A stretch of DNA of 64,000 bases, taken from an uncultured Gemmatimonadales bacterium (GTDB taxonomy: Bacteria > Gemmatimonadota > Gemmatimonadetes > Gemmatimonadales > GWC2-71-9). Shown piece after piece: positions 23,080-38,349 of this stretch (its first letter is position 1; each line of letters begins with the position of its first letter). Made by a program: the position numbers and the translations under genes. The stretch lies in assembly GCA_963795085.1 (NCBI GenBank), contig CAWCFX010000001.1:992001-1056000 (forward strand). The letters are read 5' to 3'. The notes below the pieces were generated by a model. It did no database searches. It was not told the origin of the DNA and saw nothing but the letters and a program-made list of their open reading frames with translations.

Positions 23080-23083
<4 letters not shown>

Positions 23084-23790
23084 TGCTGCAGGTGGGCGGC
23101 GCCATTCCCTCGTCTTCGCTGGAGCTGGTACTCTCCTCCAGTGTGGAGACCAAGGTCGTGCTTGCGGTGATCGCGATCTTCTCGCTCACGGCCTGGTTCA
23201 TCATCGCCTACAAGTGGTGGCAGTTTCGCCGGGTTCGCCGCCAGGCCGACCGTTTTTTCAGCGAGATGGAGCGCGCCACCCGGCTGGAGGAGGCCTATCA
23301 CACTGTGATGCGGCTGCCGCCCTCGCCGTACAACCGGATTTTCCGGGAGGCGATGGCCTTCGTGTCCGATCTCCGGCCCCGGGGCCCCGAGGGGGGATTG
23401 GTCACCCACGGCTCAATGACGGGCACCCAGCTCGAGGCGTTCAAGATGGTGCTCGCCAAGGATATCGCCGCCGAGCGGGATGCGATGGCGCACTTTATTC
23501 CGTGGCTCGCGACCGTGGGATCGGTGGGCCCCCTGCTGGGCCTGCTGGGGACCGTGCTGGGCGTGATGGATGCCTTCATCGGCATCGCCAGCAAGGGCTC
23601 CGGCAACATCGCCGCGGTCGCCCCGGGCGTGGCCGAAGCGCTGGTGACCACGGTGGCCGGACTCGCCGCGGCTATCCCGGCGGTGATCGCCTATAACATC
23701 TTCGTCAATCGCCTCAATGTCTTCGAGGGCGAAATGGACGGCTTCGCCAACGAACTGATCGGGACCATGGCCCGGGAGGGGGTCCTCTAG
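23080..23790 (+). CDS. tolQ: TolQ (MotA/TolQ/ExbB family)
   Basis: PLLGLLGTVLG, VAPGVAEALVTTVAGLAAAIPAVIAYN; in tol-pal operon. Confidence 0.9.
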
Positions 23791-23792
23791 CG

Positions 23793-24224
23793 ATGGCCGG
23801 CCCCACCGGCGCCGGGCTCCGCCGCCGCGGGCGGATTCCGCTCACGGCCGATATCAACGTCACCTCGCTGGTCGACGTCGCCTTCGTGCTGCTCATCATT
23901 TTCATGATCACTGCCCCCATGATGCAGGGCGGGGTGGACGTGCAGCTGCCCCGCGCCGAGGCCCGTCCGCTCAGCGCCAAGGAAGGGATGGTGGTGTCGG
24001 TGGACCGCGAGGGCCGCATTTTCATCGACCAGACCGAGGTGAGCTACAACGACTTCCGGCTCACCTTCAAGTCCATCGTCTCGGCCCGGAACCCCACCGG
24101 CGTGTACCTCCGCGCCGACAGCCGGGTACCCTATGGCGAGGTGGTGCGGGTGCTCGCCGTGATCCGCACCGCGGGGGTGAGCGACGTGGGCCTGGTGGCC
24201 GAGGACGAGCGGGGCGGGCCCTAG
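23793..24224 (+). CDS. tolR: TolR (ExbD/TolR family)
   Basis: INVTSLVDVAFVLLIIFMITAP, RADSRVPYG. Confidence 0.9.
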   Translation: MAGPTGAGLRRRGRIPLTADINVTSLVDVAFVLLIIFMITAPMMQGGVDVQLPRAEARPLSAKEGMVVSVDREGRIFIDQTEVSYNDFRLTFKSIVSARNPTGVYLRADSRVPYGEVVRVLAVIRTAGVSDVGLVAEDERGGP

Positions 24225-24232
24225 CGGGCGCC

Positions 24233-24922
24233 ATGGCGATCCGGGTCCGGGCTCACGCCAGGGGGAACGCGACGGTCGGCATCGCGGGGACGCTCCTCGT
24301 GCACGCGACCGCCGTGGGCCTCCTGGTCTTTGCCGTGAAGGCGCCCAAGGAGTTCCCGCCGGTGTACTCGGTGAACCTGGTCGCCGCGCCGGCGCCCCGG
24401 GAGGACAGCCGGCCCGCCCCGGAGGCGGTTGCCCGGCCGGTGGAAGAGCCGCCCGCGCCGTCGGTGCCGGTCGCCGAACCCGCCAGGACCGTGCCCAAGC
24501 CGGTCCCGACCCGGCCGCAGCCGGCCCAGCCGAAAGAACCGGCGCCGCGGACCCGGAGTCCCGAGCGCCCCGCACCGGGGGAGACGCCGGGCACCGGCAG
24601 CGACGCTGTGACGGTCAAGACACCGGGGCTGACTTTCCCGTACCCCGGTTATCTTGAGAACATCTACAACCAGATCTACCGCCGCTGGGAACGCCCGGTC
24701 AGTTCCAGTCTCAGCGCAGAAGTCACTTTTCTGATAATGCGGGATGGTTCGGTGCGGGATCTCCGGTTCTCCCGGTCTTCGGGGAACTTTTCATTCGACC
24801 TGAGCGCCCAGGGAGCAGTCGAGGCCGCCGGCAATACCAAGGCGTTCGGCTCGCTCCCCGATGGCTTCGAGGCAGACGTGCTATTGGTCAGTTTTTATTT
24901 TGCTCCGGCGGCTTCCCGATGA
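24233..24922 (+). CDS. TolA/TonB-family energy transducer
   Basis: TM with His (TLLVHA), Pro-rich linker, C-terminal SSGNFSFDLSAQGAV. Confidence 0.75.
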   Translation: MAIRVRAHARGNATVGIAGTLLVHATAVGLLVFAVKAPKEFPPVYSVNLVAAPAPREDSRPAPEAVARPVEEPPAPSVPVAEPARTVPKPVPTRPQPAQPKEPAPRTRSPERPAPGETPGTGSDAVTVKTPGLTFPYPGYLENIYNQIYRRWERPVSSSLSAEVTFLIMRDGSVRDLRFSRSSGNFSFDLSAQGAVEAAGNTKAFGSLPDGFEADVLLVSFYFAPAASR

Positions 24923-26211
24923 GAACCATCGCGATCACCGCCCTCCTGGGTCTCCTGGCTGCGCCGCTTCTCGCGCAGGATACGCTCGGCGTTCGCCTGG
25001 GAATTACCTACGGCAGGGGAAGCCGGCCCGGACTGGTCATCCTCCCTTCCGCCGGGGTGGACTCGGTGCGGGCCATTCTGGCCCGCGATCTCGACTACAG
25101 CGACCGGTTTGAAGTCGTCGCCATTCCCGCGTCGGAAGTCGCCCGGGGCGGCGGTGGCCGGGCCGGCACCGTCAACTACGGACTCTATCGTACGCTGGGC
25201 GCGGCCTATGGCCTCGAGGTGCTGGCCGGTACCGGGGGTGGCGGGGTCCGGGTGCGGCTGCACGATCTCCAGGCCGGCTCCGTTCGCCGTGAGGAGACTA
25301 CCAACCTGCCGCCCCCCGATTCGCCGGCCTTTCGGATGATGGTCCACCGGCTGGCCGACGAAATCGTCCGCTGGATCACCGGGCTGCCCGGCATCGCGGC
25401 GACCCAGTTCGTCTTCCTGGTGGACAAACAGGTGTACCGGATGGACAGCGACGGCTACAACATGACGGCCGTGACGGGCCGCGGCGAGGAGGCGCTCTCG
25501 CCCACCTGGTCGCCCGATGGAGCCCGGGTTGCCTACACGCAGTTCGACGAGGGCCGCGGCTCCATCGTGATTGAGGACCGGGGCGGCACCAAGCGCTCGG
25601 TGCCCGGGACCGGCCGGGACCTCAACATCACCCCGGCGTTTTCGCCCGACGGGCAGTGGCTCGCCTATGCGCGGGTGGGCGAGGACGGGACCGACATTTT
25701 CAAGGTGAGCCTGGCCGGTTCGGGCGGGCCGCAACGCTTGACCGCCGGTCGCTTCGCGGATAACCTATCTCCGACCTGGTCGCCAGACGGGCGGCGGATC
25801 GGCTTCGTGTCCACCCGCTCCGGGCTGCCACAGGTGTATGTTATGGGGGCCGACGGGACGGACCAGGAGCTGCTCGCCCCGTTTGACTACGGTGTCACCG
25901 GGAGTTCCAACGCTCCGGAGTGGTCGCCGGACGGAGCCAGCCTGGTGTTTCACCGCGATGTCTCCCGTTCGCCCCAGGTTTTTGTGCTCGATATCAACAG
26001 CCGGCGGGTTCGCCAGTTGACCTCGTCCGGCCGCAATGAAGACCCGACGTGGGCCCCTGACGGGCGGCACGTGGCTTTCATCTCGGACCGAAGCGGCCGC
26101 CGCCAGCTGTGGGTCATCGACATGGAATCAGGCCGGGTGCGCCAATTGCGCACGTCGGCATCGGTGCGGTTGCCCTCGTGGTCCCGTCACCTGGACGGAC
26201 CCGTTCAATAA
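24919..26211 (+). CDS. tolB: TolB beta-propeller
   Basis: Repeated PxWSPDG (PD40) motifs; directly before pal. Confidence 0.9.
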   Translation: MRTIAITALLGLLAAPLLAQDTLGVRLGITYGRGSRPGLVILPSAGVDSVRAILARDLDYSDRFEVVAIPASEVARGGGGRAGTVNYGLYRTLGAAYGLEVLAGTGGGGVRVRLHDLQAGSVRREETTNLPPPDSPAFRMMVHRLADEIVRWITGLPGIAATQFVFLVDKQVYRMDSDGYNMTAVTGRGEEALSPTWSPDGARVAYTQFDEGRGSIVIEDRGGTKRSVPGTGRDLNITPAFSPDGQWLAYARVGEDGTDIFKVSLAGSGGPQRLTAGRFADNLSPTWSPDGRRIGFVSTRSGLPQVYVMGADGTDQELLAPFDYGVTGSSNAPEWSPDGASLVFHRDVSRSPQVFVLDINSRRVRQLTSSGRNEDPTWAPDGRHVAFISDRSGRRQLWVIDMESGRVRQLRTSASVRLPSWSRHLDGPVQ

Positions 26212-26231
26212 CCTTTTTATCAGGAGTTCCG

Positions 26232-26849
26232 ATGCGCTTTCCTTTGATGTTGGTTACGCTGGTGGTGGCCGGAGTTGTCGGCGCCGCGTGCGGTGGCAGC
26301 CAGCCGCCGGAGACCTCGACTACGCCCGCGGTAGATACCGCCGCTGCAAACGCCCGGGCCCGCGCCCGCCAGGACTCCATCGATGCGGCCAACCGCGCCC
26401 GCGCCGAAGCCGACCGTCTGGCCCGTGAAGAGGCCGAGCGCCGCGCCGCCGCCGATCGCGCCGCCCGCGACCGGCAGGCCCTGATGACCGACATGGCTGC
26501 GATGGTGCACTTCGACTATGACCGTGCCGACATTCGCTCGGACGACATGGCCAAACTTGACCGCAAGGCCGCCATCCTCAGCGCCAACACCGGTGCCCGG
26601 ATCCGGATCTCCGGCCACGCCGACGATCGCGGCTCCGATGAGTACAACCTGGCGCTGGGCAACCGCCGGGCCGCCGCCGCCAAGCGTTACCTGGTGAGCA
26701 AGGGCATCGCCGACGGCCGGATCGACATCGTGTCCTATGGCGAAGAGCGTCCCACGGCCCAGGGCACCGACGAGGCCAGCTACCAGCAGAACCGGCGGGC
26801 CGAGTTCGAGATCGTGGCGGGCGGCGATAACCTCATGGCGCCGAGATAA
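26232..26849 (+). CDS. pal: Peptidoglycan-associated lipoprotein Pal
   Basis: Lipobox AAC; HFDYD, GHADDRGSDEYNLALGNRRA, SYGEERP, NRRAEF. Confidence 0.95.
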   Translation: MRFPLMLVTLVVAGVVGAACGGSQPPETSTTPAVDTAAANARARARQDSIDAANRARAEADRLAREEAERRAAADRAARDRQALMTDMAAMVHFDYDRADIRSDDMAKLDRKAAILSANTGARIRISGHADDRGSDEYNLALGNRRAAAAKRYLVSKGIADGRIDIVSYGEERPTAQGTDEASYQQNRRAEFEIVAGGDNLMAPR

Positions 26850-27680
26850 GTGGCCGCAATCAGGCGCAGTTCCCGAACCAACAGCAAGGCGCACCACGGT
26901 GCGCCCTTGCTGGCGCTCGGCCTCCTGGTGGTCCTGGGGGGATGTGCCCTCAAGGGCGACGTCAAGCGGGTCGAGACAGAGCTGGCGGCGTTCCGCATGG
27001 AATCCGCGGTCCAGGATTCCATTCGGGCGGCCCGGCTCAACGAAATGCTCGAATTGCAGCAGCGCCTCATGGACTCGCTGGGCTCCAGCATCGTTTCCAC
27101 CGAGCGCGCCGTCCTGGCGATCCGCGGTTCCCTGAGCCAGGACATGTACCGCATCCAGCAGCAGCTGGTGCAGGTCCAGGAGCTGACCGGGCAGAGCCAG
27201 CAGCGGCTGAGCGAGTTACGTTCCCAGCTGGAAACCCGCAGCCAGCAGGCCGCAGCGGCCCCGTCCGATTCCGCCGCCGCCCCGGTGCAGGGCTCGGGTG
27301 GCGGCCCCTCGGCCGACCAGATGTACGAGGCGTCGCTGCAGCAGCTGCGGCGGGGCAGCGTAGCCACGGCGCGAATGGGTTTCCGGCAACTGGTCCAGAG
27401 CCACCCGCAAAGCTCCCGGGTGGCTGACGCACTCTATTTTATCGGGGAGAGCTGGGCCGGCGAGTCTCCCGACTCGGCCGCGCGGTATTACGAGCAGGTG
27501 GTGACGACTTACCCCACATCTACCCGGGCCCCCGGTTCACTGTACAAGCTGGGGCTCCTGGCGGAGCGCCGCCGCGATATCGCCGCCGCCCGGGCCTACT
27601 TCACCCGGGTTGCCCGGGATTATCCACGGTCCGAAGAAGCCGCCCTGGTCCCTGACAAGCTGAAGGCGCTCGGGCAGTAA
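26850..27680 (+). CDS. cpoB: CpoB/YbgF tol-pal coiled-coil TPR protein (start uncertain)
   Basis: Lipobox-like LGGC, coiled coil, TPRs (DALYFIGE, SLYKLG, YPRSEEA). Confidence 0.85.
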   Translation: MAAIRRSSRTNSKAHHGAPLLALGLLVVLGGCALKGDVKRVETELAAFRMESAVQDSIRAARLNEMLELQQRLMDSLGSSIVSTERAVLAIRGSLSQDMYRIQQQLVQVQELTGQSQQRLSELRSQLETRSQQAAAAPSDSAAAPVQGSGGGPSADQMYEASLQQLRRGSVATARMGFRQLVQSHPQSSRVADALYFIGESWAGESPDSAARYYEQVVTTYPTSTRAPGSLYKLGLLAERRRDIAAARAYFTRVARDYPRSEEAALVPDKLKALGQ

Positions 27681-27698
27681 ACCCGGGCGATCCACCGC

Positions 27699-30600
27699 AT
27701 GGCCCGCGCCAATGGAGAGATGCCGTTCCTCGATCATCTCGAGGAACTGCGGATGCGGATTCTCAAGTCCGCCGGCGCGCTGGTGCTCGGCATGGCCGTT
27801 GGCCTCTTCGTGGTGGAGCGGTTTCAGCTGATCGTCCTGCTGAAACGCCCCATCGAGCCCTACCTGCCCGCCGGGGGCAAGCTGATCGTGACCGGCCCGA
27901 CCGAGCCGGTCATGATCGTCCTCAAGCTCGGATTCACCGTCGGGCTGGTTCTCGCCTCCCCGGTGCTCATCTACCAGCTGTGGGCCTTCCTTTCTCCGGC
28001 CCTCTACGCCCGGGAAAAGAAAGCCCTGGTCCCCGGGCTGCTGATCGGCCTCCTGCTGTTCATGGCGGGCGGGGCGCTGGGCTTCCTGTATATCGTGCCC
28101 CAGGCTCTCCGGGTGCTCTTCAGCTTCCAGTCGGAAGCGCTGGCCCCGTTCATCACCTACGACAAGTATTTCAGCTTCCTGCTCCAGGTGGTGCTGGCGA
28201 TGGGGATCTCGTTCGAGCTCCCCCTGGTCATCATCCTGCTGTCGATTTTCGGGTTGCTCACGCCGGCCGCGCTGCACCGGTTCCGCCGCTTCGCGATCGT
28301 GCTCGCCTGCATCGCAGGCGCGGTGCTTTCGCCCGGAGCAGACGTCATTTCCATGGTGATGATGACGGTCCCCCTGATCTTTCTGTACGAGGTGGGCGTC
28401 GCCGGGTCTTCAATCGTGTACCGGCGCAAGAAGCGGCGGGAGGCGCGGGCGGCCTCGGCGGCCGCGCTGCTCTTTTTCCTCTTCGCCGGAGTGGGAGCGG
28501 TATCGGCCCAGGAGCCGGTGCGGCCCCGGCCCGATTCACTCCGCCCGGCGATCCCCCGGGACAGCCTGCTTCGGGCGCGCCCCGACACGGGTCGCCGCCC
28601 CCGGGCCGGGAGCCAGCTGGACACCGCGACGGCCGCGCGCCTGGGGCTGCCGACCGCGCCCACCCGGAGTTTTCCCGCCCCCGACTCCATCATGGAGGCC
28701 CTCCTGGCGCGGCCCGGATTCCAGGCAGTGCGCTATCGGGCCGACTCCGCGACCCTGTATGCCGAGGAGCGGCGGATCCAGCTGCGCCGGGACGCGCTGA
28801 CTCAGCGGGGGCAGTCGGTGATGGAAGCCGACAGCGCCATCACCTACGACGACTCCGAGTGCATGATGACCGCCGGCGGCAATCCCCGCCTGTTCGACGG
28901 CGGGTCGGTGGTGGTCTCGAAACACATCTCCTACAATCACTGCATCCGGCGGGCCGTCATCGCCGACGCGCTGACCAATTTCCAGGAGGGATCCACCACC
29001 TGGTTCCTCCGGGGCACCCTGGCCCAGGACTCCAGCTCCAGCCGGCTCTACGCGCATTCCGGAGAGATCACCAGCTGTGATCTGCCGAATCCCCACTATC
29101 ATTTCTCGGCCCGGCAGGTGAAATGGATCTCCAAGACCGTGCTGGTCGCCCGGCCCGCGGTGCTCTACGTGCGCGATGTCCCCATCCTGTGGCTTCCGTT
29201 CATTTTCCAGGATGCCCGGCCGGGGCGGCGGTCCGGCATCCTGGTGCCCCAGTTCGGGATCAACGACATCGTGCGTCCCAATGGAGGCTATAACCGGCAG
29301 GTGACCAACGTGGGCTACTACTGGGCGCCCAACGAGTACTTCGACCTGACCGCCCGGCTCGACTGGTACGCCAATCGCTACACCCAGTATGGCATCGCGG
29401 GTCAGTACCGGTGGCTGAACCGGTTCGTCACCGGCAACCTCGCGTACAACCGCACCTCGGAGAACACCGGGCAGCGCTCCACCAACGTCCGCTGGGACCA
29501 CCGGCAGAGCTTCAACCTCAACACCACGCTCAATTTCAACCTGAACTATGCCAGCAACTCCAGCGTTATCCGGCGCAACGCGATCGACCCGCTCCTGTCC
29601 ACCCAGAACATCACCAGCGCGCTCAACTTCACCCGCCGCTTCGGCTGGGGGTCGCTGACCCTGGGCGGCAACCGGCGGCAGAGCCTCACCGACCGGAGCG
29701 TGACCCAGCAGTTCCCCGCGCTCACCATCAACCCCAAGCCCCTGGATCTGTCCCGGAACCTCACCTGGTCTCCCTCGGTGAGCTTCACCCGGGACGAGAG
29801 CCGCAATACCCCGCGAGGTTTCTTCGTGGTCGCCAATGCGCTGGGCGGGCTGGACTCGGTGGCGGCCACCGAGGATACCCGGCTGACCGCGTTCAACCTG
29901 GACACGCCGCTCCGGTTCTGGGGGTTCAACTGGCGCAACTCCGTCCGGATGACCGACCGGCTGGTGCAGGGCCGTCAGGCGGTGACCTTCCGGGAGGAGA
30001 ACACGGCTACGCCGGAGCCGGGGGACTCGGTGAACGTGACCCGGGTGTTCAGCGGAGATTTCTCGACCGGGGTAGACTGGAATACCGGCATCAATCTGCC
30101 GACACTGGCCCGCTCCACCTTCAAGCTGCAACCCACGCTGGGCATCGACAATATCGTGACCGGGCAGCCCTTTCTCCTCCGCAACCGCAACACCGGCGGC
30201 GACTACGTGGTGCAGGGCAAGCGGTTCGCGCTGTCGATGAGCGCGGCACCCACCGTGTTTGGCTTTTATCCCGGCGTCGGGCCGCTGGCCCGGATCCGTC
30301 ACAGCCTGTCGCCGGTCTTCAACTGGACCTACCGGCCCGCCGCCGAGATCCCGGCCGAGTTCGCCCGGGCCATCCAGCAACCGGGCCGGCCCATCGAATT
30401 GCGCAGCGATCCCAACCAGACGGCCAGCATCAGCCTGTCCCAGTCCTTCGAAGCCAAGGCGCGGCAGGCCCCCGGCGATACGACCGATCCGCAGAATGTC
30501 CGGAAGTACCGGCTGTTGAGCATCTCGACCAGCCAGCTGGCCTACGATTTCGAGCAAGCCAAGAAACCGGGCCGTACCGGGTGGATCACCCCTAGCATTT

Positions 30601-31247
30601 CGAACACCTTCCAGAGCGACCTGCTCCCCGGGTTCAACCTGTCGATGTCCCATGACCTGTGGCGGGGGGCGGTAGGGACCGACACGGCGGAGTTCGACCC
30701 GTTTCTCTCCAGTGTGAGCGCCGGGTTCGCGGTTTCAGGGAATACTTTCCGGACCCTCCTGTCGTTCGTCGGCCTGGCCCGGCGGCCGGAGCCCGCCGCG
30801 GCAGCCGCCGGGCAGCGTCCCGCCCAGCCGACCTCCTACGTCGCGGACGTGGGCCGCCGGCGGGGCGGCAGCAGTTTCTACAATACGGACCAGTACGCGG
30901 TGGGGATGGGGCGGGCGTTCACCGCCAACTTCAACTACTCGCTCTCCCGGGCCCGGCCCACCCCGGGCGATGGGATCGCCGATATCGAGCCGCGGCAGAA
31001 CCTCGGTTTCAGCACCAGTTTCTCGCCCACCCCGCTCTGGTCGCTCTCCTGGACCGCCCAGTACAACATCACCGACCGGCAGTTTGAGTCCCACGTGGTC
31101 CGCCTGGAGCGGGACATGCACGAATGGAAGGCCAGTTTCAACGCCATCAAGAACGCCAACGGCAACTTCCAGTTCTTCTTCAGTATCTACCTGAGCGACC
31201 TCCCGGAAGTGAAATTCGACTACGACCAGACCACCATCGAGCGCTAG
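27699..31247 (+). CDS. tatC: TatC fused in frame to an LptD-like outer-membrane beta-barrel protein
   Basis: MPFLDHLEELR, YQLWAFLSPALY, FELP, VLSPGAD, LYE (TatC); then TSCDLPNPHYHFSARQVK, RRSGILVP and amphipathic beta-strands (LptD-type). Confidence 0.85.
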   Translation: MARANGEMPFLDHLEELRMRILKSAGALVLGMAVGLFVVERFQLIVLLKRPIEPYLPAGGKLIVTGPTEPVMIVLKLGFTVGLVLASPVLIYQLWAFLSPALYAREKKALVPGLLIGLLLFMAGGALGFLYIVPQALRVLFSFQSEALAPFITYDKYFSFLLQVVLAMGISFELPLVIILLSIFGLLTPAALHRFRRFAIVLACIAGAVLSPGADVISMVMMTVPLIFLYEVGVAGSSIVYRRKKRREARAASAAALLFFLFAGVGAVSAQEPVRPRPDSLRPAIPRDSLLRARPDTGRRPRAGSQLDTATAARLGLPTAPTRSFPAPDSIMEALLARPGFQAVRYRADSATLYAEERRIQLRRDALTQRGQSVMEADSAITYDDSECMMTAGGNPRLFDGGSVVVSKHISYNHCIRRAVIADALTNFQEGSTTWFLRGTLAQDSSSSRLYAHSGEITSCDLPNPHYHFSARQVKWISKTVLVARPAVLYVRDVPILWLPFIFQDARPGRRSGILVPQFGINDIVRPNGGYNRQVTNVGYYWAPNEYFDLTARLDWYANRYTQYGIAGQYRWLNRFVTGNLAYNRTSENTGQRSTNVRWDHRQSFNLNTTLNFNLNYASNSSVIRRNAIDPLLSTQNITSALNFTRRFGWGSLTLGGNRRQSLTDRSVTQQFPALTINPKPLDLSRNLTWSPSVSFTRDESRNTPRGFFVVANALGGLDSVAATEDTRLTAFNLDTPLRFWGFNWRNSVRMTDRLVQGRQAVTFREENTATPEPGDSVNVTRVFSGDFSTGVDWNTGINLPTLARSTFKLQPTLGIDNIVTGQPFLLRNRNTGGDYVVQGKRFALSMSAAPTVFGFYPGVGPLARIRHSLSPVFNWTYRPAAEIPAEFARAIQQPGRPIELRSDPNQTASISLSQSFEAKARQAPGDTTDPQNVRKYRLLSISTSQLAYDFEQAKKPGRTGWITPSISNTFQSDLLPGFNLSMSHDLWRGAVGTDTAEFDPFLSSVSAGFAVSGNTFRTLLSFVGLARRPEPAAAAAGQRPAQPTSYVADVGRRRGGSSFYNTDQYAVGMGRAFTANFNYSLSRARPTPGDGIADIEPRQNLGFSTSFSPTPLWSLSWTAQYNITDRQFESHVVRLERDMHEWKASFNAIKNANGNFQFFFSIYLSDLPEVKFDYDQTTIER

Positions 31248-31353
31248 TCAGCGCAACCTGGATAGGTCGTGCTGTCCTCGACCAGGGACAGCCCCCCGTC
31301 CTTCCCGGGGCGCAACTCGCGGCGGGGCGGCGGGTTAGGGCCGGGGGGCCAGA

Positions 31354-31369
31354 TGGCACACCCCCTGCT
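31354..31369 (+). promoter_or_regulatory. sigma54-type promoter
   Basis: TGGCAC-ACCCC-CTGCT (GG-N10-GC). Confidence 0.55.
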
Positions 31370-31400
31370 TTAACGCCGGCATCCCCACTGGAGCAGACCC

Positions 31401-32525
31401 ATGCGAGTCGCGATGTCGGCGGTCCTGTTGAGTGTGTTGTCCCTCGGCTGCCAGGACGAGTTCCTCGGCGGCGGCTCCCTGCTGAACCCCCCGACCAACC
31501 TTACGTACAAGGTCGAACCCAGCGGCACTCCAGGAAGCCCTTCCGGGGTCCTGCTGCAATGGGATTTCAGCACCGATCCGGCCATCGCGGTGTGGCGGGT
31601 GTACTCGCGGGGAAGCAGCTCCGGGTCCTTCCGGCTCCGCGGGTCCACCACCTCCAACACCTATCATGACAACGGCATACCCCACCTCCAGTATTACGTG
31701 ACCGCGGAGGACGATGCCGGGTACGAGAGCGATCCCAGCAACGCGGTGACAGTGGACGAGCGGCTGGCCCTGGACGCGCCCCTGGCCCTGACCACCACGT
31801 CGCTCGACCAGGCCATCGCGCTCAGCTGGACCGACAACGCCTACACCTCCGAACCGCAGGGATTCTCGATTTACCGGATATACAGCACCGCCTATGACCT
31901 GGACCTGGGACTGTGCGGCGCGACCTGGTCGCTGGAAGGCACCACGGTAGCCCCCGAGTACATCGCCGGCGCGCTGACCAATGGCGCGCCCCGCTGCTTC
32001 GGCGTCTCCGCGATCAGCGTGGAAGGCTTCGAAAGCCTCTGGTCGCCGGTCCGTTCGGATACGCCGCGGCCCGACGCGCGGAATGTCCTGATCTATGCCC
32101 GCCAGTACTCGGTGGGCGGCAGCGGCTTCCGCTTCTGGCGCGACCTGGACAGCGATGGCCGCAGCGATCCCAACGAGATCGGGCTGGTTGGATCGGGCAA
32201 CGCGGTGGATATCGATTTTTCGATCGAGCGGGACCCTGCGGGCGACCTCTTCTTTACGCCGGTGCGGGCCGGGACCGGGGTCATCGCCTACGGCAGCATC
32301 CCGGTGGAAGACCTGACCAGCATCGATTATGCGCCCGACGTGAACTATCCCTCGGCCGCGCTGAGCGCGGTGCCCGGGTGGGGCTACGTCTTCGCGATGG
32401 ATGGCGGCGACGGGTACTCACGGTTCGGAGCGGTGCGGGTGACTCACGTGGGCCAGGACTACCTGATCCTGGACTGGGCCTTTCAGACCGATCCCGGCAA
32501 TCCGGAACTGATCCGGGCGCGGTAG
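31401..32525 (+). CDS. Lipoprotein with two FN3-like repeats
   Basis: Lipobox LSLGC; PPTNL...LQWD...YYVTAEDDAGYES.PS and APLAL...LSW...FGVSAISVEGFES.WS. Confidence 0.75.
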   Translation: MRVAMSAVLLSVLSLGCQDEFLGGGSLLNPPTNLTYKVEPSGTPGSPSGVLLQWDFSTDPAIAVWRVYSRGSSSGSFRLRGSTTSNTYHDNGIPHLQYYVTAEDDAGYESDPSNAVTVDERLALDAPLALTTTSLDQAIALSWTDNAYTSEPQGFSIYRIYSTAYDLDLGLCGATWSLEGTTVAPEYIAGALTNGAPRCFGVSAISVEGFESLWSPVRSDTPRPDARNVLIYARQYSVGGSGFRFWRDLDSDGRSDPNEIGLVGSGNAVDIDFSIERDPAGDLFFTPVRAGTGVIAYGSIPVEDLTSIDYAPDVNYPSAALSAVPGWGYVFAMDGGDGYSRFGAVRVTHVGQDYLILDWAFQTDPGNPELIRAR

Positions 32526-32651
32526 CGGGCAGGGGGCCGGGAGGGACGGGGAGGCACGCAGTCGTGGCCTCCCCACTTTTCTTGCCCCTTGCCCTCCTGC
32601 CCCCTTTTTCCCCTTCTTCCCCCTCTCCCCGCCTCCCCGCTATGTTGGGCC

Positions 32652-34199
32652 ATGCCTTTCACTCTGACGATTGACGGCAAGTCCCTCAGTATCGCCGACA
32701 CTGTCCGGTTCGCGCGGGAATCGGACAGCCGGTTGGCCGTCCACGCGGACGCGCGGGCCCGGCTGGGCCGGAGCCGCGACCTGGTCGACGCGGCGATCAA
32801 GGGCGGCGCCACCATCTACGGAATCAACACCGGGTTTGGAAAGCTGGCCAACGTGCGGATCGCGCCGGACCGGCTCAGCGAGCTCCAGGCCAACCTGATA
32901 CGCAGCCACGCCGCCGGGGTGGGCGCCCTGCTGCCCCGCGACGTGGTCCGGGCCGCGATGCTGCTTCGGGCCAACGTGCTGCTGCGGCCCACCAGCGGGG
33001 TGCGACCCGAACTGGTGGATGCGCTGGTCACGATGGTCAACGCCGGTGTGGTCCCCGCGGTACCGGAGCAGGGCAGTGTAGGGGCCAGCGGCGACCTGGC
33101 TCCGCTCGCCCACATTGCCCAGGTCCTGATGGGCGAGGGCGAGGTACTGGTGGACGGCGACGCGTTCCCCGCGGCGTCCGTGCTGGGCGCCGCCGGCATC
33201 ACCCCGTTCGCCCTGGCGCCCAAGGAAGGCCTCGCCTTCATCAACGGCACCCAGGCCCAGACCGCGCTGCTCGCCCTCCTGGTCCATGATGCCGAAGTGC
33301 TCTGGCGCAGCGCCGTGGGAGCGGCCGCCATGAGCCTGGAGGCGCTGCGCGGCACTCCGGCGCCGCTGGACGCCCGGATTCATGAGGCCCGCCCCCATCG
33401 CGGGCAGATCCAGGCGGCCGCGGTGATGCGCAGCCTGCTGGAGGACAGTGCCATTCGGGAATCCCACCGGGACAATGACGAGCGGGTCCAGGATGCCTAC
33501 AGCCTGCGTTGCACCCCGCAGGTGCTGGGCGCGGTGGCCGACGCCATCCGGTTTGCCCGGGACACCGCGGTGGTGGAGCTCAATTCGTCCACCGACAATC
33601 CGCTGGTGTTCGACAATGGCGACGTGATCTCCGGCGGCAACTTTCACGGTCAGCCGGTGGCCCAGGCGCTCGACTTTCTGGCGGTCGCGCTGACCACGCT
33701 GCAGGCCATCGCCGAGCGGCGGGTGGAGCGGCTGGTCAATCCCGATCTTTCCCAGGGGCTGCCGGCGTTCCTCACCGCCGATCCGGGCCTCTGCTCCGGA
33801 TTCATGATGGTCCAGATCACCGCCGCCTCCCTGGTGGCGGAGTCTCGCACGCTCTGCATGCCGGCCAGCATCGGGAGCATTCCCACGGATGCCAACCAGG
33901 AAGACTTTGTCCCCATGGGCATGGCGGCGGCGTACAAGACCCGGCGGGTGCTGGCCAATGCCCAGCGGGTCATTGCGAGCGAGTTTCTCTGTGCCGCCCA
34001 GGGGCTGGAGTTCCTCAAACCGCTGGAGCCAGGTCGGGGGGTGCGCCAGCTCTACCGCCGCATTCGCGAGAGCAGCCCCCCGGTGCTACCGCTCACGGCC
34101 GACCGGCCCCCGGCGCCGGACCTGGCGCAGCTGACCGCGATGATCGCGGTGGGCCTGCTGGATCCGGGCATTGCGCCGGGCCCGGGGGGTGCGCAATAG
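32652..34199 (+). CDS. hutH: Histidine ammonia-lyase
   Basis: YGINTGFG, GSVGASGDLAPLAH (MIO), VQDAYSLRC, SGGNFHG, ANQED. Confidence 0.93.
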   Translation: MPFTLTIDGKSLSIADTVRFARESDSRLAVHADARARLGRSRDLVDAAIKGGATIYGINTGFGKLANVRIAPDRLSELQANLIRSHAAGVGALLPRDVVRAAMLLRANVLLRPTSGVRPELVDALVTMVNAGVVPAVPEQGSVGASGDLAPLAHIAQVLMGEGEVLVDGDAFPAASVLGAAGITPFALAPKEGLAFINGTQAQTALLALLVHDAEVLWRSAVGAAAMSLEALRGTPAPLDARIHEARPHRGQIQAAAVMRSLLEDSAIRESHRDNDERVQDAYSLRCTPQVLGAVADAIRFARDTAVVELNSSTDNPLVFDNGDVISGGNFHGQPVAQALDFLAVALTTLQAIAERRVERLVNPDLSQGLPAFLTADPGLCSGFMMVQITAASLVAESRTLCMPASIGSIPTDANQEDFVPMGMAAAYKTRRVLANAQRVIASEFLCAAQGLEFLKPLEPGRGVRQLYRRIRESSPPVLPLTADRPPAPDLAQLTAMIAVGLLDPGIAPGPGGAQ

Positions 34200-37812: not shown

Positions 37813-38084
37813 TGCCCGCTGGACCCCGCCGACCCGCGTTCTACCTTGGCGTGCTCACCGCCGGCTTCCTGGCCGGCGGCTTCCTGACGGCGCTGCTCCG
37901 GGAGTTCTTGCCGGACAGCGTGGCCAAGGAGGTCTTTACCTACACCGTCTCCCCCTCCGTGGGGCCGGTCTCGCTCGACCTGCTGGTCATTAATTTGACT
38001 CTGGGGCCTCTGGGGCTCCATGTTTCCATCCTCAGCCTGCTCGGCGTCGTGCTCGCCTACCTCGTGGCGCGCTCGCTTTTCTAA
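37812..38084 (+). CDS. Small membrane protein (DUF4321-like)
   Basis: Two hydrophobic segments, SLDLLVINLTLG pattern; translationally coupled. Confidence 0.6.
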   Translation: MPAGPRRPAFYLGVLTAGFLAGGFLTALLREFLPDSVAKEVFTYTVSPSVGPVSLDLLVINLTLGPLGLHVSILSLLGVVLAYLVARSLF

Positions 38085-38094
38085 GGAGTCCCGT

Positions 38095-38349
38095 ATGTTC
38101 GGCAACCTCGGTGTGTGGGAAATCCTGATGATCCTGGTGGTGGTGATGCTGCTCTTCGGCGCCAAGCGGCTGCCGGAGATGGGCGCCTCCATCGGCAAGG
38201 GAATCCGGGAGTTCAAGCGCAGTATCAGCCAGACGGAAGACGCGATCATGAAACCGGAAGACCAGCACCAGGTGAATGCCGGACGCCAGATGGACCAGCC
38301 CCCCACCACGCCGCCCGCCGGCGGGGAGCCGAAACGGTTGTCGCAGTAG
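38095..38349 (+). CDS. tatA: Twin-arginine translocase subunit TatA
   Basis: AAGGAG RBS; EILMIL...LLFGAKRLPEMGASIGKGIREFK. Confidence 0.95.
   Translation: MFGNLGVWEILMILVVVMLLFGAKRLPEMGASIGKGIREFKRSISQTEDAIMKPEDQHQVNAGRQMDQPPTTPPAGGEPKRLSQ

Follow-up and report, generated by a model that had tools for sequence, protein, structure and literature searches.

How can one polypeptide chain serve two membranes? The question is raised by a fused tatC-lptD gene of an uncultured Gemmatimonadales bacterium, located in a window of 64,000 nt (the whole stretch of DNA analysed, positions 992,001 to 1,056,000 of contig CAWCFX010000001.1; coordinates below are those of the window). Its product begins with TatC, the inner-membrane protein of twin-arginine translocation (Tat), continues through an additional hydrophobic segment, here called the seventh helix, and ends with LptD, the outer-membrane protein of the lipopolysaccharide (LPS) translocon. 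On comparison with relatives, the product is probably a polyprotein that signal peptidase I would divide into TatC, with the seventh helix still attached, and a normal LptD.

Organization of the fused gene

The open reading frame (ORF) runs over 1182 aa without an internal stop, and base composition is even along the whole gene. The sequence-only reading had described such an uninterrupted frame, with a complete TatC followed by LptD-type sequence; both points were borne out, the second by Pfam and TIGRFAM profile matches. The extra helix with V-S-A/QEP (the slash marks the predicted cut) was likewise found where that reading had placed it, at nt 28419-28511. The junction reads ...SIVYRRKKRREARAASAAALLFFLFAGVGAVSA/QEPVRPRP, with Y241 beginning at nt 28419 and A270 ending at nt 28508. 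After the LYE motif closing helix 6, the basic cluster YRRKKRRE leads into a hydrophobic stretch, which is followed by V-S-A and QEP.

The TatC part matched Pfam TatC (PF00902) at residues 12-225 over the full length of the profile (1-208 of 208; E = 2.5e-58; 197.8 bits, cut-off 25.1) and TIGR00945 at residues 11-230 (191.1 bits vs. a cut-off of 132.7). A profile from the MAFFT alignment of 44 fused proteins (A1) matched the solved TatC chains 4b4a_A, 4hts_A, and 4htt_A with E-values of about 1e-69 to 1e-74 (7e-72 to 1.6e-73 at profile positions 8-255). Hydropathy segments were located at residues 20-48, 68-99, 108-137, 158-195, and 198-237, the last comprising two helices, with the extra segment at 249-271. 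The likeness to canonical TatC of the Escherichia coli type (4b4a and 4hts are Aquifex TatC) extends over the full TatC length (E about 1e-70); the fused protein differs from it by carrying the seventh helix. Unlike a stand-alone TatC of ~250 residues, the frame runs 940 residues further; this extra length is a variant feature and no reason to doubt the TatC domain.

The LptD part matched LptD_2 (PF19838; E = 1.2e-36; 126.9 bits, cut-off 22.5) twice: the stronger stretch lies at residues 483-679, and the second covers profile positions 233-431 (window ~29991-30554). A profile of the LptD part (A3) matched the solved LptD chains 7omm_A (E = 2.1e-15) and 8h1r_A (1.8e-9), and its first hundred positions were matched by LptA (8onu_A, 2.6e-5) and LptH (4uu4_A, 4.9e-5), so that the N-terminal Lpt jellyroll is recognizable. 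The matches to solved LptD cover the jellyroll and end in the early barrel. Nearest Atlas protein clusters were 96-100% LptD_2, and a stand-alone LptD of 993 aa (P0190) aligned end to end, its residues 37-983 with query residues 273-1177. Since neither of the classical models, PF04453 (barrel) and PF03968 (N-domain), matched this protein or any other part of the genome, the LptD part was assigned to the LptD_2 type only. It is thus like canonical LptD (7omm, 8h1r) in the jellyroll and early barrel and differs from it in family.

In this genome (3.89 Mb, 93.4% complete), the fused gene holds the sole TatC found by profile search and the sole LptD-type gene (a single LptD_2 locus), so both halves are presumably needed.

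Distribution of the fusion

The fusion recurs in many independent genomes. Both PF00902 and PF19838 were present in all of the best 120 of 1239 protein-search matches (60-86% identity, several sources), and clustering at 50% gave five full-length fused representatives. Across the phylum, 151 genomes were sampled and every one had a match; 72 of them belong to the window's own family (f1). An unbroken frame over the junction was present in 63 of these 72 genomes, at identities down to 45%. They comprise 55 genomes with a single match from query residue 6 or lower to residue 1178 or higher (hand count), six with partial matches crossing residue 271 without a stop (G013, G035, G041, G054, G095, and G101), one with a fused gene carrying a long acidic insert (G037), and one in which the TatC frame is open over the junction to the contig end (G007). 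Four rows among the 55 were flagged "1 TAG"; reading of the loci placed this stop elsewhere than between the two parts. G057, among the 63, is an unpublished genome, and no claim depends on it. The other nine f1 genomes had split, adjacent genes (four), lptD unlinked from tatC (three), or fragments (two, G063 and G118).

A second, overlapping named set of 59 records contained 22 fused and 33 split genes, two without a TatC match, and two at a contig end; three of the 33 split loci resemble frameshifted fused genes. The labels in this set were Gemmatimonadota or subgroups, save one "Actinomycetota" and two "bacterium". In the protein listing, public annotation names the fused genes "TatC" only.

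Several irregular records were observed. One contig of a long-read metagenome-assembled genome (MAG) carries two opposite-oriented fused copies ~1.4 kb apart, one of them frameshifted (L070 and L071), and assemblies of the same kind gave frameshifted or truncated copies (L080, L090, and L096). These anomalies are probably assembly errors rather than biology. A split tatC-lptD pair lies on a 3.1-kb contig labelled Actinomycetota (L125), which is likely a mis-binned Gemmatimonadota contig. Among the public sequencing runs with the stretch there was no RNA run, and the best DNA runs shared at most 0.17 of words. In contigs of four runs, the bins at 28311-28412 were empty, and three short low-identity pieces (from one run) fell in 28413-28514, none of them joining TatC and LptD.

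Ancestry and interchange of gene states

Among 52 loci read in detail, 35 were fused, 14 were split and adjacent, and 3 were unlinked. Apart from the three unlinked cases, the tatC-lptD neighbourhood was kept in all 62 sampled genomes (8 of the 12 sampled families). In four more distant families (f4, f6, f7, and f10), tatC lay directly upstream of a separate lptD in 10 of 10 genomes. At the split loci, the lptD start overlaps the tatC stop (ATGA or GTGA) in 11 of 14 cases, and in the named set in 22 of 30. Such a stop-start overlap is the classical layout for translational coupling. As the overlap sets lptD one base out of frame, a single indel could fuse or unfuse the two genes. Judged by gene order, the ancestral state is separate, adjacent tatC and then lptD, translationally coupled, a state still found in most other Gemmatimonadota families; by the same comparison, the fused gene is one indel beyond this coupling.

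The split pair of other Gemmatimonadota (e.g., L046-L053, L057-L066, and L091-L122) consists of the same proteins in the same order and in the same place after cpoB. Its LptD has a signal ending in A-x-A/Q and the same Pro-rich N-terminal stretch as the fused form. In the split pair, TatC terminates 10-25 residues past its basic cluster, and a GTG or ATG overlapping the stop opens lptD; the fused form has lost this stop, the TatC tail, and the n-region of LptD itself, and is made as one chain.

A quick maximum-likelihood tree built from the LptD part (52 rows, G057 among them) requires at least nine changes among the fused, split, and unlinked states. The f1 clade contained 33 fused, 4 split, and 3 unlinked genes, the exceptions being nested inside fused groups. 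The mostly split family f2 contained two separately arisen fused genes, one of which was sister to a split gene with 100% support, and sister pairs of differing state occur on the tree. Such interchange would be expected were the mature products identical.

In the three unlinked genomes (G025, G033, and G066; loci L042-L044 and L127-L129), cpoB lies directly upstream of lptD. The only TatC found in them is encoded elsewhere, is f2-like (43-46% identity), has 253-277 residues, and is without the seventh helix. This suggests that the fused tatC part was deleted once another tatC was available.

Identity of the seventh helix

Residues ~5-30 of the stand-alone LptD representatives (~900-1030 residues, 32-39% identity) aligned to query residues 246-275, and the N-termini of these proteins are ordinary Sec signals ending in A-x-A/Q. 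By this alignment, the seventh helix corresponds to the N-terminal signal peptide of stand-alone LptD. Together with the conserved residues at -3, -1, and +1 described below, the alignment supports the role of internal signal proposed for the extra helix by the sequence-only reading. On the same comparison, the fusion has kept the LptD signal core and the mature N-terminus and has lost the short tail of TatC and the n-region of LptD.

The RR pairs remarked upon in the n-region lead nowhere, the basic cluster being the cytoplasmic tail of TatC, which is present in unfused TatC too. A twin-arginine signal was rejected on this ground, and the unfused LptD signals have plain Sec-type n-regions.

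The stretch between the glutamine and the LptD body had a median length of 58 residues in fused f1 genes (39-72, n = 33) and 52 in split f1 genes (n = 4); for other split genes (n = 9, one locus giving no site) and for unlinked genes (n = 3) it was 57. Since this Pro-rich stretch is equally long in fused and unfused proteins, there is no fusion-specific linker. Between it and the jellyroll, at residues 307-326 (window ~28617-28676), lies the motif LDTATARRLGLPTAP.RSF, which is near-invariant in f1 and f3, in fused and split proteins alike, and is replaced by another sequence in f2.

Conservation of the predicted cleavage site

The junction is among the most variable parts of A1. At the predicted site, this alignment had glutamine at +1 in 44 of 44 sequences (at least 90% in a second alignment, A2), with A (37), G (4), S (2), or V (1) at -1 and A (24), L (15), V (2), S (1), T (1), or M (1) at -3. 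In a wider count of 121 proteins, the site was found in 119; the -3 residue, which the search pattern left free, was A (82), V (10), L (8), T (8), G (6), S (3), I (1), or F (1), i.e., A/V/L/T/G/S/I in 118. Being kept amid an otherwise variable stretch, the cleavage signature is under selection, and the one obvious role for the conserved glutamine is that of a new N-terminus.

Within the genome, glutamine is the commonest +1 residue, found in 128 of 640 heuristic signal-like N-termini (20.0% vs. a background of 3.9%), and A-x-A/Q is the site ordinarily used by its signal peptides. A position matrix trained on 457 of these N-termini, this gene excluded, gave its highest score anywhere in the protein to a cut after residue 270, with 16.1 bits against a median of 13.9 for the training set. 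Of the 14 frames that a crude screen of the genome for polyproteins returned, the fused gene alone combines a basic n-region with Q at +1. The genome encodes one S26-family signal peptidase I (PF10502, E = 3.9e-45).

Glutamine at +1 has been described for Bacteroidetes as the Q-rule, the glutamine being converted to pyroglutamate (PMC5837995; also PMC10653852). Elsewhere in the Fibrobacteres-Chlorobi-Bacteroidetes (FCB) group, Q-values of 2-77% are given, and the passages on this do not name Gemmatimonadetes (PMC5837995). Glutaminyl cyclase (PF05096) was not found in the genome with a probe that was uninformative, as the Bacteroides control was silent too.

Several points weigh against cleavage. 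The invariance of Q271 in A1 is alignment-dependent, given the lower figure in A2. In the count of 121 proteins, -1 and +1 were imposed by the search pattern. The signal-peptide calls came from crude heuristics. An internal site scoring as high was present in 149 of 4452 other long frames, a null contaminated by true N-termini inside long open frames. In fused proteins, the uncharged core of the helix has a median length of 17 (13-25, n = 124), somewhat above the 14 (6-23, n = 67) of stand-alone LptD signals, and so edges toward signal-anchor lengths. Finally, it is an assumption that a signal preceded by six transmembrane helices is cleaved.

Predicted processing and alternative explanations

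With these points considered, processing of the chain by signal peptidase I is still the probable course. The following sequence of events is proposed. A small frame-changing event would have removed the tatC stop in this family, so that the basic cytoplasmic tail of TatC now leads straight into the hydrophobic core of the LptD Sec signal. Co-translational insertion of TatC would leave its C-terminus on the cytoplasmic side. The former signal peptide would next enter the membrane as the seventh helix, N-in/C-out, and start Sec translocation of the LptD part of ~910 residues. Signal peptidase I would cut after A270 (V-S-A/Q), freeing mature LptD with Q271 as its first residue. LptD would go on to the outer membrane, TatC would be left with a permanent seventh helix, and both products would be expected to work as usual. 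Synthesis would be obligately 1:1, and LptD would have switched from post-translational to TatC-led co-translational targeting. The sequence-only reading had likewise proposed a polyprotein with the barrel released at Q271. The comparison establishes the fusion, its ancestry, and the identity of the signal, and the cut itself stays a prediction from comparative evidence.

Were the chain left uncut, it would be a two-membrane protein that tethers the two machines, the seventh helix serving as a permanent anchor. TatC would sit in the inner membrane and the LptD barrel in the outer one, with a disordered linker of ~60 residues spanning the periplasm. The unbroken frame in 63 of 72 family genomes and the slightly longer uncharged core (17 vs. 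14) would fit such an anchor, and by our own estimate, the Pro-rich 39-72 residues, if extended, could bridge a periplasm of ~20 nm. Both the anchor and the spanning linker are nevertheless improbable. The A-x-A/Q signature is kept in fused sequences (Q in 44 of 44), although the glutamine has no obvious in-chain role; the linker is equally long in unfused LptD, so that tethering is not what it evolved for; changes between the fused, split, and unlinked states recur among close relatives; and the TatC serving in the three unlinked genomes does without the seventh helix.

We also consider it unlikely that either some chains stay uncut and covalently tether Tat to the LPS translocon, or the seventh helix works in the Tat receptor, where it may, for example, occupy a helix-binding face. 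If either were true, TatC-led co-translational targeting with fixed 1:1 stoichiometry would be imposed on the biogenesis of LptD.

Internal initiation is similarly doubtful. LptD would then be made separately, with an ordinary N-terminal signal, from a start codon inside the junction, and the read-through fusion would be a tolerated by-product. The ancestral arrangement did rely on re-initiation at an overlapping start, and the junction of 31 of 35 fused genes contains an in-frame GTG, ATG, or TTG, including the GTG at 28416 (V240), which the sequence-only reading had named as a possible start. This GTG is not conserved, however, and four of the 35 fused genes (L017, L021, L025, and L031) have no in-frame ATG, GTG, or TTG between LYE and the hydrophobic core, which argues against the barrel being made solely from such a site. 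The one candidate that recurs is the GTG encoding the conserved Val of LYEV, and Shine-Dalgarno-like motifs are rare and mostly stem from the GAG-GT of this motif. With no stop codon, there is no termination-reinitiation at the junction, and a ribosome on tatC would read straight past any such start.

An assembly frameshift or a decaying pseudogene joining two genes is excluded: frameshifted or truncated records are few and come from long-read MAGs (L070, L080, L090, and L096), whereas dozens of independent assemblies and 120 protein clusters, at 45-86% identity, share this in-frame junction, each half is scored as an intact family member, the genome has no other TatC or LptD, and base composition is continuous.

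Locus features and gene neighbourhood

Features of the locus are listed in Table 1, together with the peptides by which uncut and cut chains would be told apart.

Table 1. Features of the tatC-lptD locus and of related genes in the window.
Feature	Coordinates	Strand	Remarks
tolQ-tolR-tolA-like-tolB-like-pal-like-cpoB-like cluster	23080..27680	+	Upstream, 18-nt gap to tatC
Whole fused tatC-lptD frame	27699..31247	+	1182 codons plus stop; both Pfam domains in one frame
TatC part, residues 1-240	27699..28418	+	Predicted six-helix core; ends in conserved LYE motif, residues 229-231
Junction / internal signal peptide (predicted), residues 241-270	28419..28508	+	Basic cluster RRKKRR, hydrophobic core, c-region V-S-A
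Q271 codon, predicted first residue of mature LptD	28509..28511	+	Q in 44 of 44 rows of A1, at least 90% in A2
Pro/Arg-rich low-complexity stretch and motif LDTATARRLGLPTAP.RSF, residues 271-330	28509..28688	+	Length equal in fused and unfused relatives
LptD-like body, residues 331-1182	28689..31244	+	Lpt beta-jellyroll-type N-domain, then LptD_2 region
TatA/B-family gene, sole one in genome	38107..38253	+	Inside ORF 38020-38349, ~7 kb downstream; PF02416, E = 1.8e-17
Peptide bridging the junction in the uncut chain			...GVGAVSAQEPVR...
Predicted semi-tryptic N-terminal peptide of cut LptD (Q271 start)			(pyro)QEPVRPRPDSLR

The fused gene follows a tol-pal-cpoB cluster, in agreement with its earlier placement at the end of a tol-pal operon. 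The upstream proteins were MotA/TolQ, ExbD/TolR, a TolA-like protein with a TonB_2-C domain, a TolB-like PD40 beta-propeller, a Pal-like protein of the OmpA family, and a CpoB/YbgF-like tetratricopeptide repeat (TPR) protein. The gene for the last ends just before the tatC ATG, and cpoB is directly upstream in relatives too. The Pal-like ORF (26109-26849, +) overlaps the end of the TolB-like ORF (24919-26211, +) by ~100 nt; the true Pal start probably lies further downstream. Of the LPS pathway, genes for LptE, LptF, LptG, and LpxC were found in the genome.

Downstream, an ORF of 374 aa (31401-32525, +) begins with an N-terminus like a lipoprotein signal (...LSLGC). It had no Pfam match, and its Atlas neighbours were hypothetical clusters of Gemmatimonadota only, with weak fibronectin-III hints. 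In 10 of 11 loci of relatives read with 1.5-kb flanks, this ORF again comes right after the fused gene. Its product may be an LptD-associated lipoprotein, a separate LptE being encoded elsewhere in the genome.

No Rfam families were found in 26500-32700. A terminator-like GC hairpin with a T-run at 28449-28465 (+), within the stretch coding for the signal peptide, was rejected as a chance occurrence (z-score -1.30; 20 of 200 shuffles as good). A T-rich stretch stands at this position in just 9 of 35 fused genes, and the hairpin is probably an incidental effect of the Ala and Phe/Leu codons.

Precedents and significance

No description of a TatC-LptD fusion was found in the literature searched, and we know of no other signal-peptidase polyprotein joining an inner-membrane translocase to an outer-membrane barrel. 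The closest known precedent is FbcH of Bradyrhizobium japonicum, a cytochrome b-cytochrome c1 precursor in which an internal signal peptide is reportedly the site of the split (Thony-Meyer, Hennecke, and colleagues, about 1989-1991). There, too, an exported protein is joined via an internal cleavable signal to a polytopic inner-membrane protein whose C-terminus is cytoplasmic, and the chain is reportedly processed into two proteins. The products of FbcH are subunits of one complex, whereas TatC and LptD belong to unrelated machines in different membranes and their cleavage is predicted.

In the C-prM polyprotein of flaviviruses and the Gn/Gc polyprotein of bunyaviruses, an internal hydrophobic segment likewise restarts translocation and gives a signal-peptidase site. 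They differ in depending on the eukaryotic signal peptidase complex of the endoplasmic reticulum and in their viral context. A 2013 survey of TatC diversity includes one Gemmatimonadetes genome, and the words fusion and fused are absent from it (PMC3827258).

If cleavage is confirmed, the fused protein would be a rarity, a natural polyprotein of bacteria that signal peptidase I processes. It would offer a natural test case for the handling by Sec and signal peptidase of a signal placed after six transmembrane helices, and for the co-translational delivery of a beta-barrel protein. The locus also shows that coupling by stop-start overlap can tip into gene fusion and back. Since annotation names these genes "TatC" only, the sole LptD of an entire family of common soil bacteria is hidden from pathway reconstructions.

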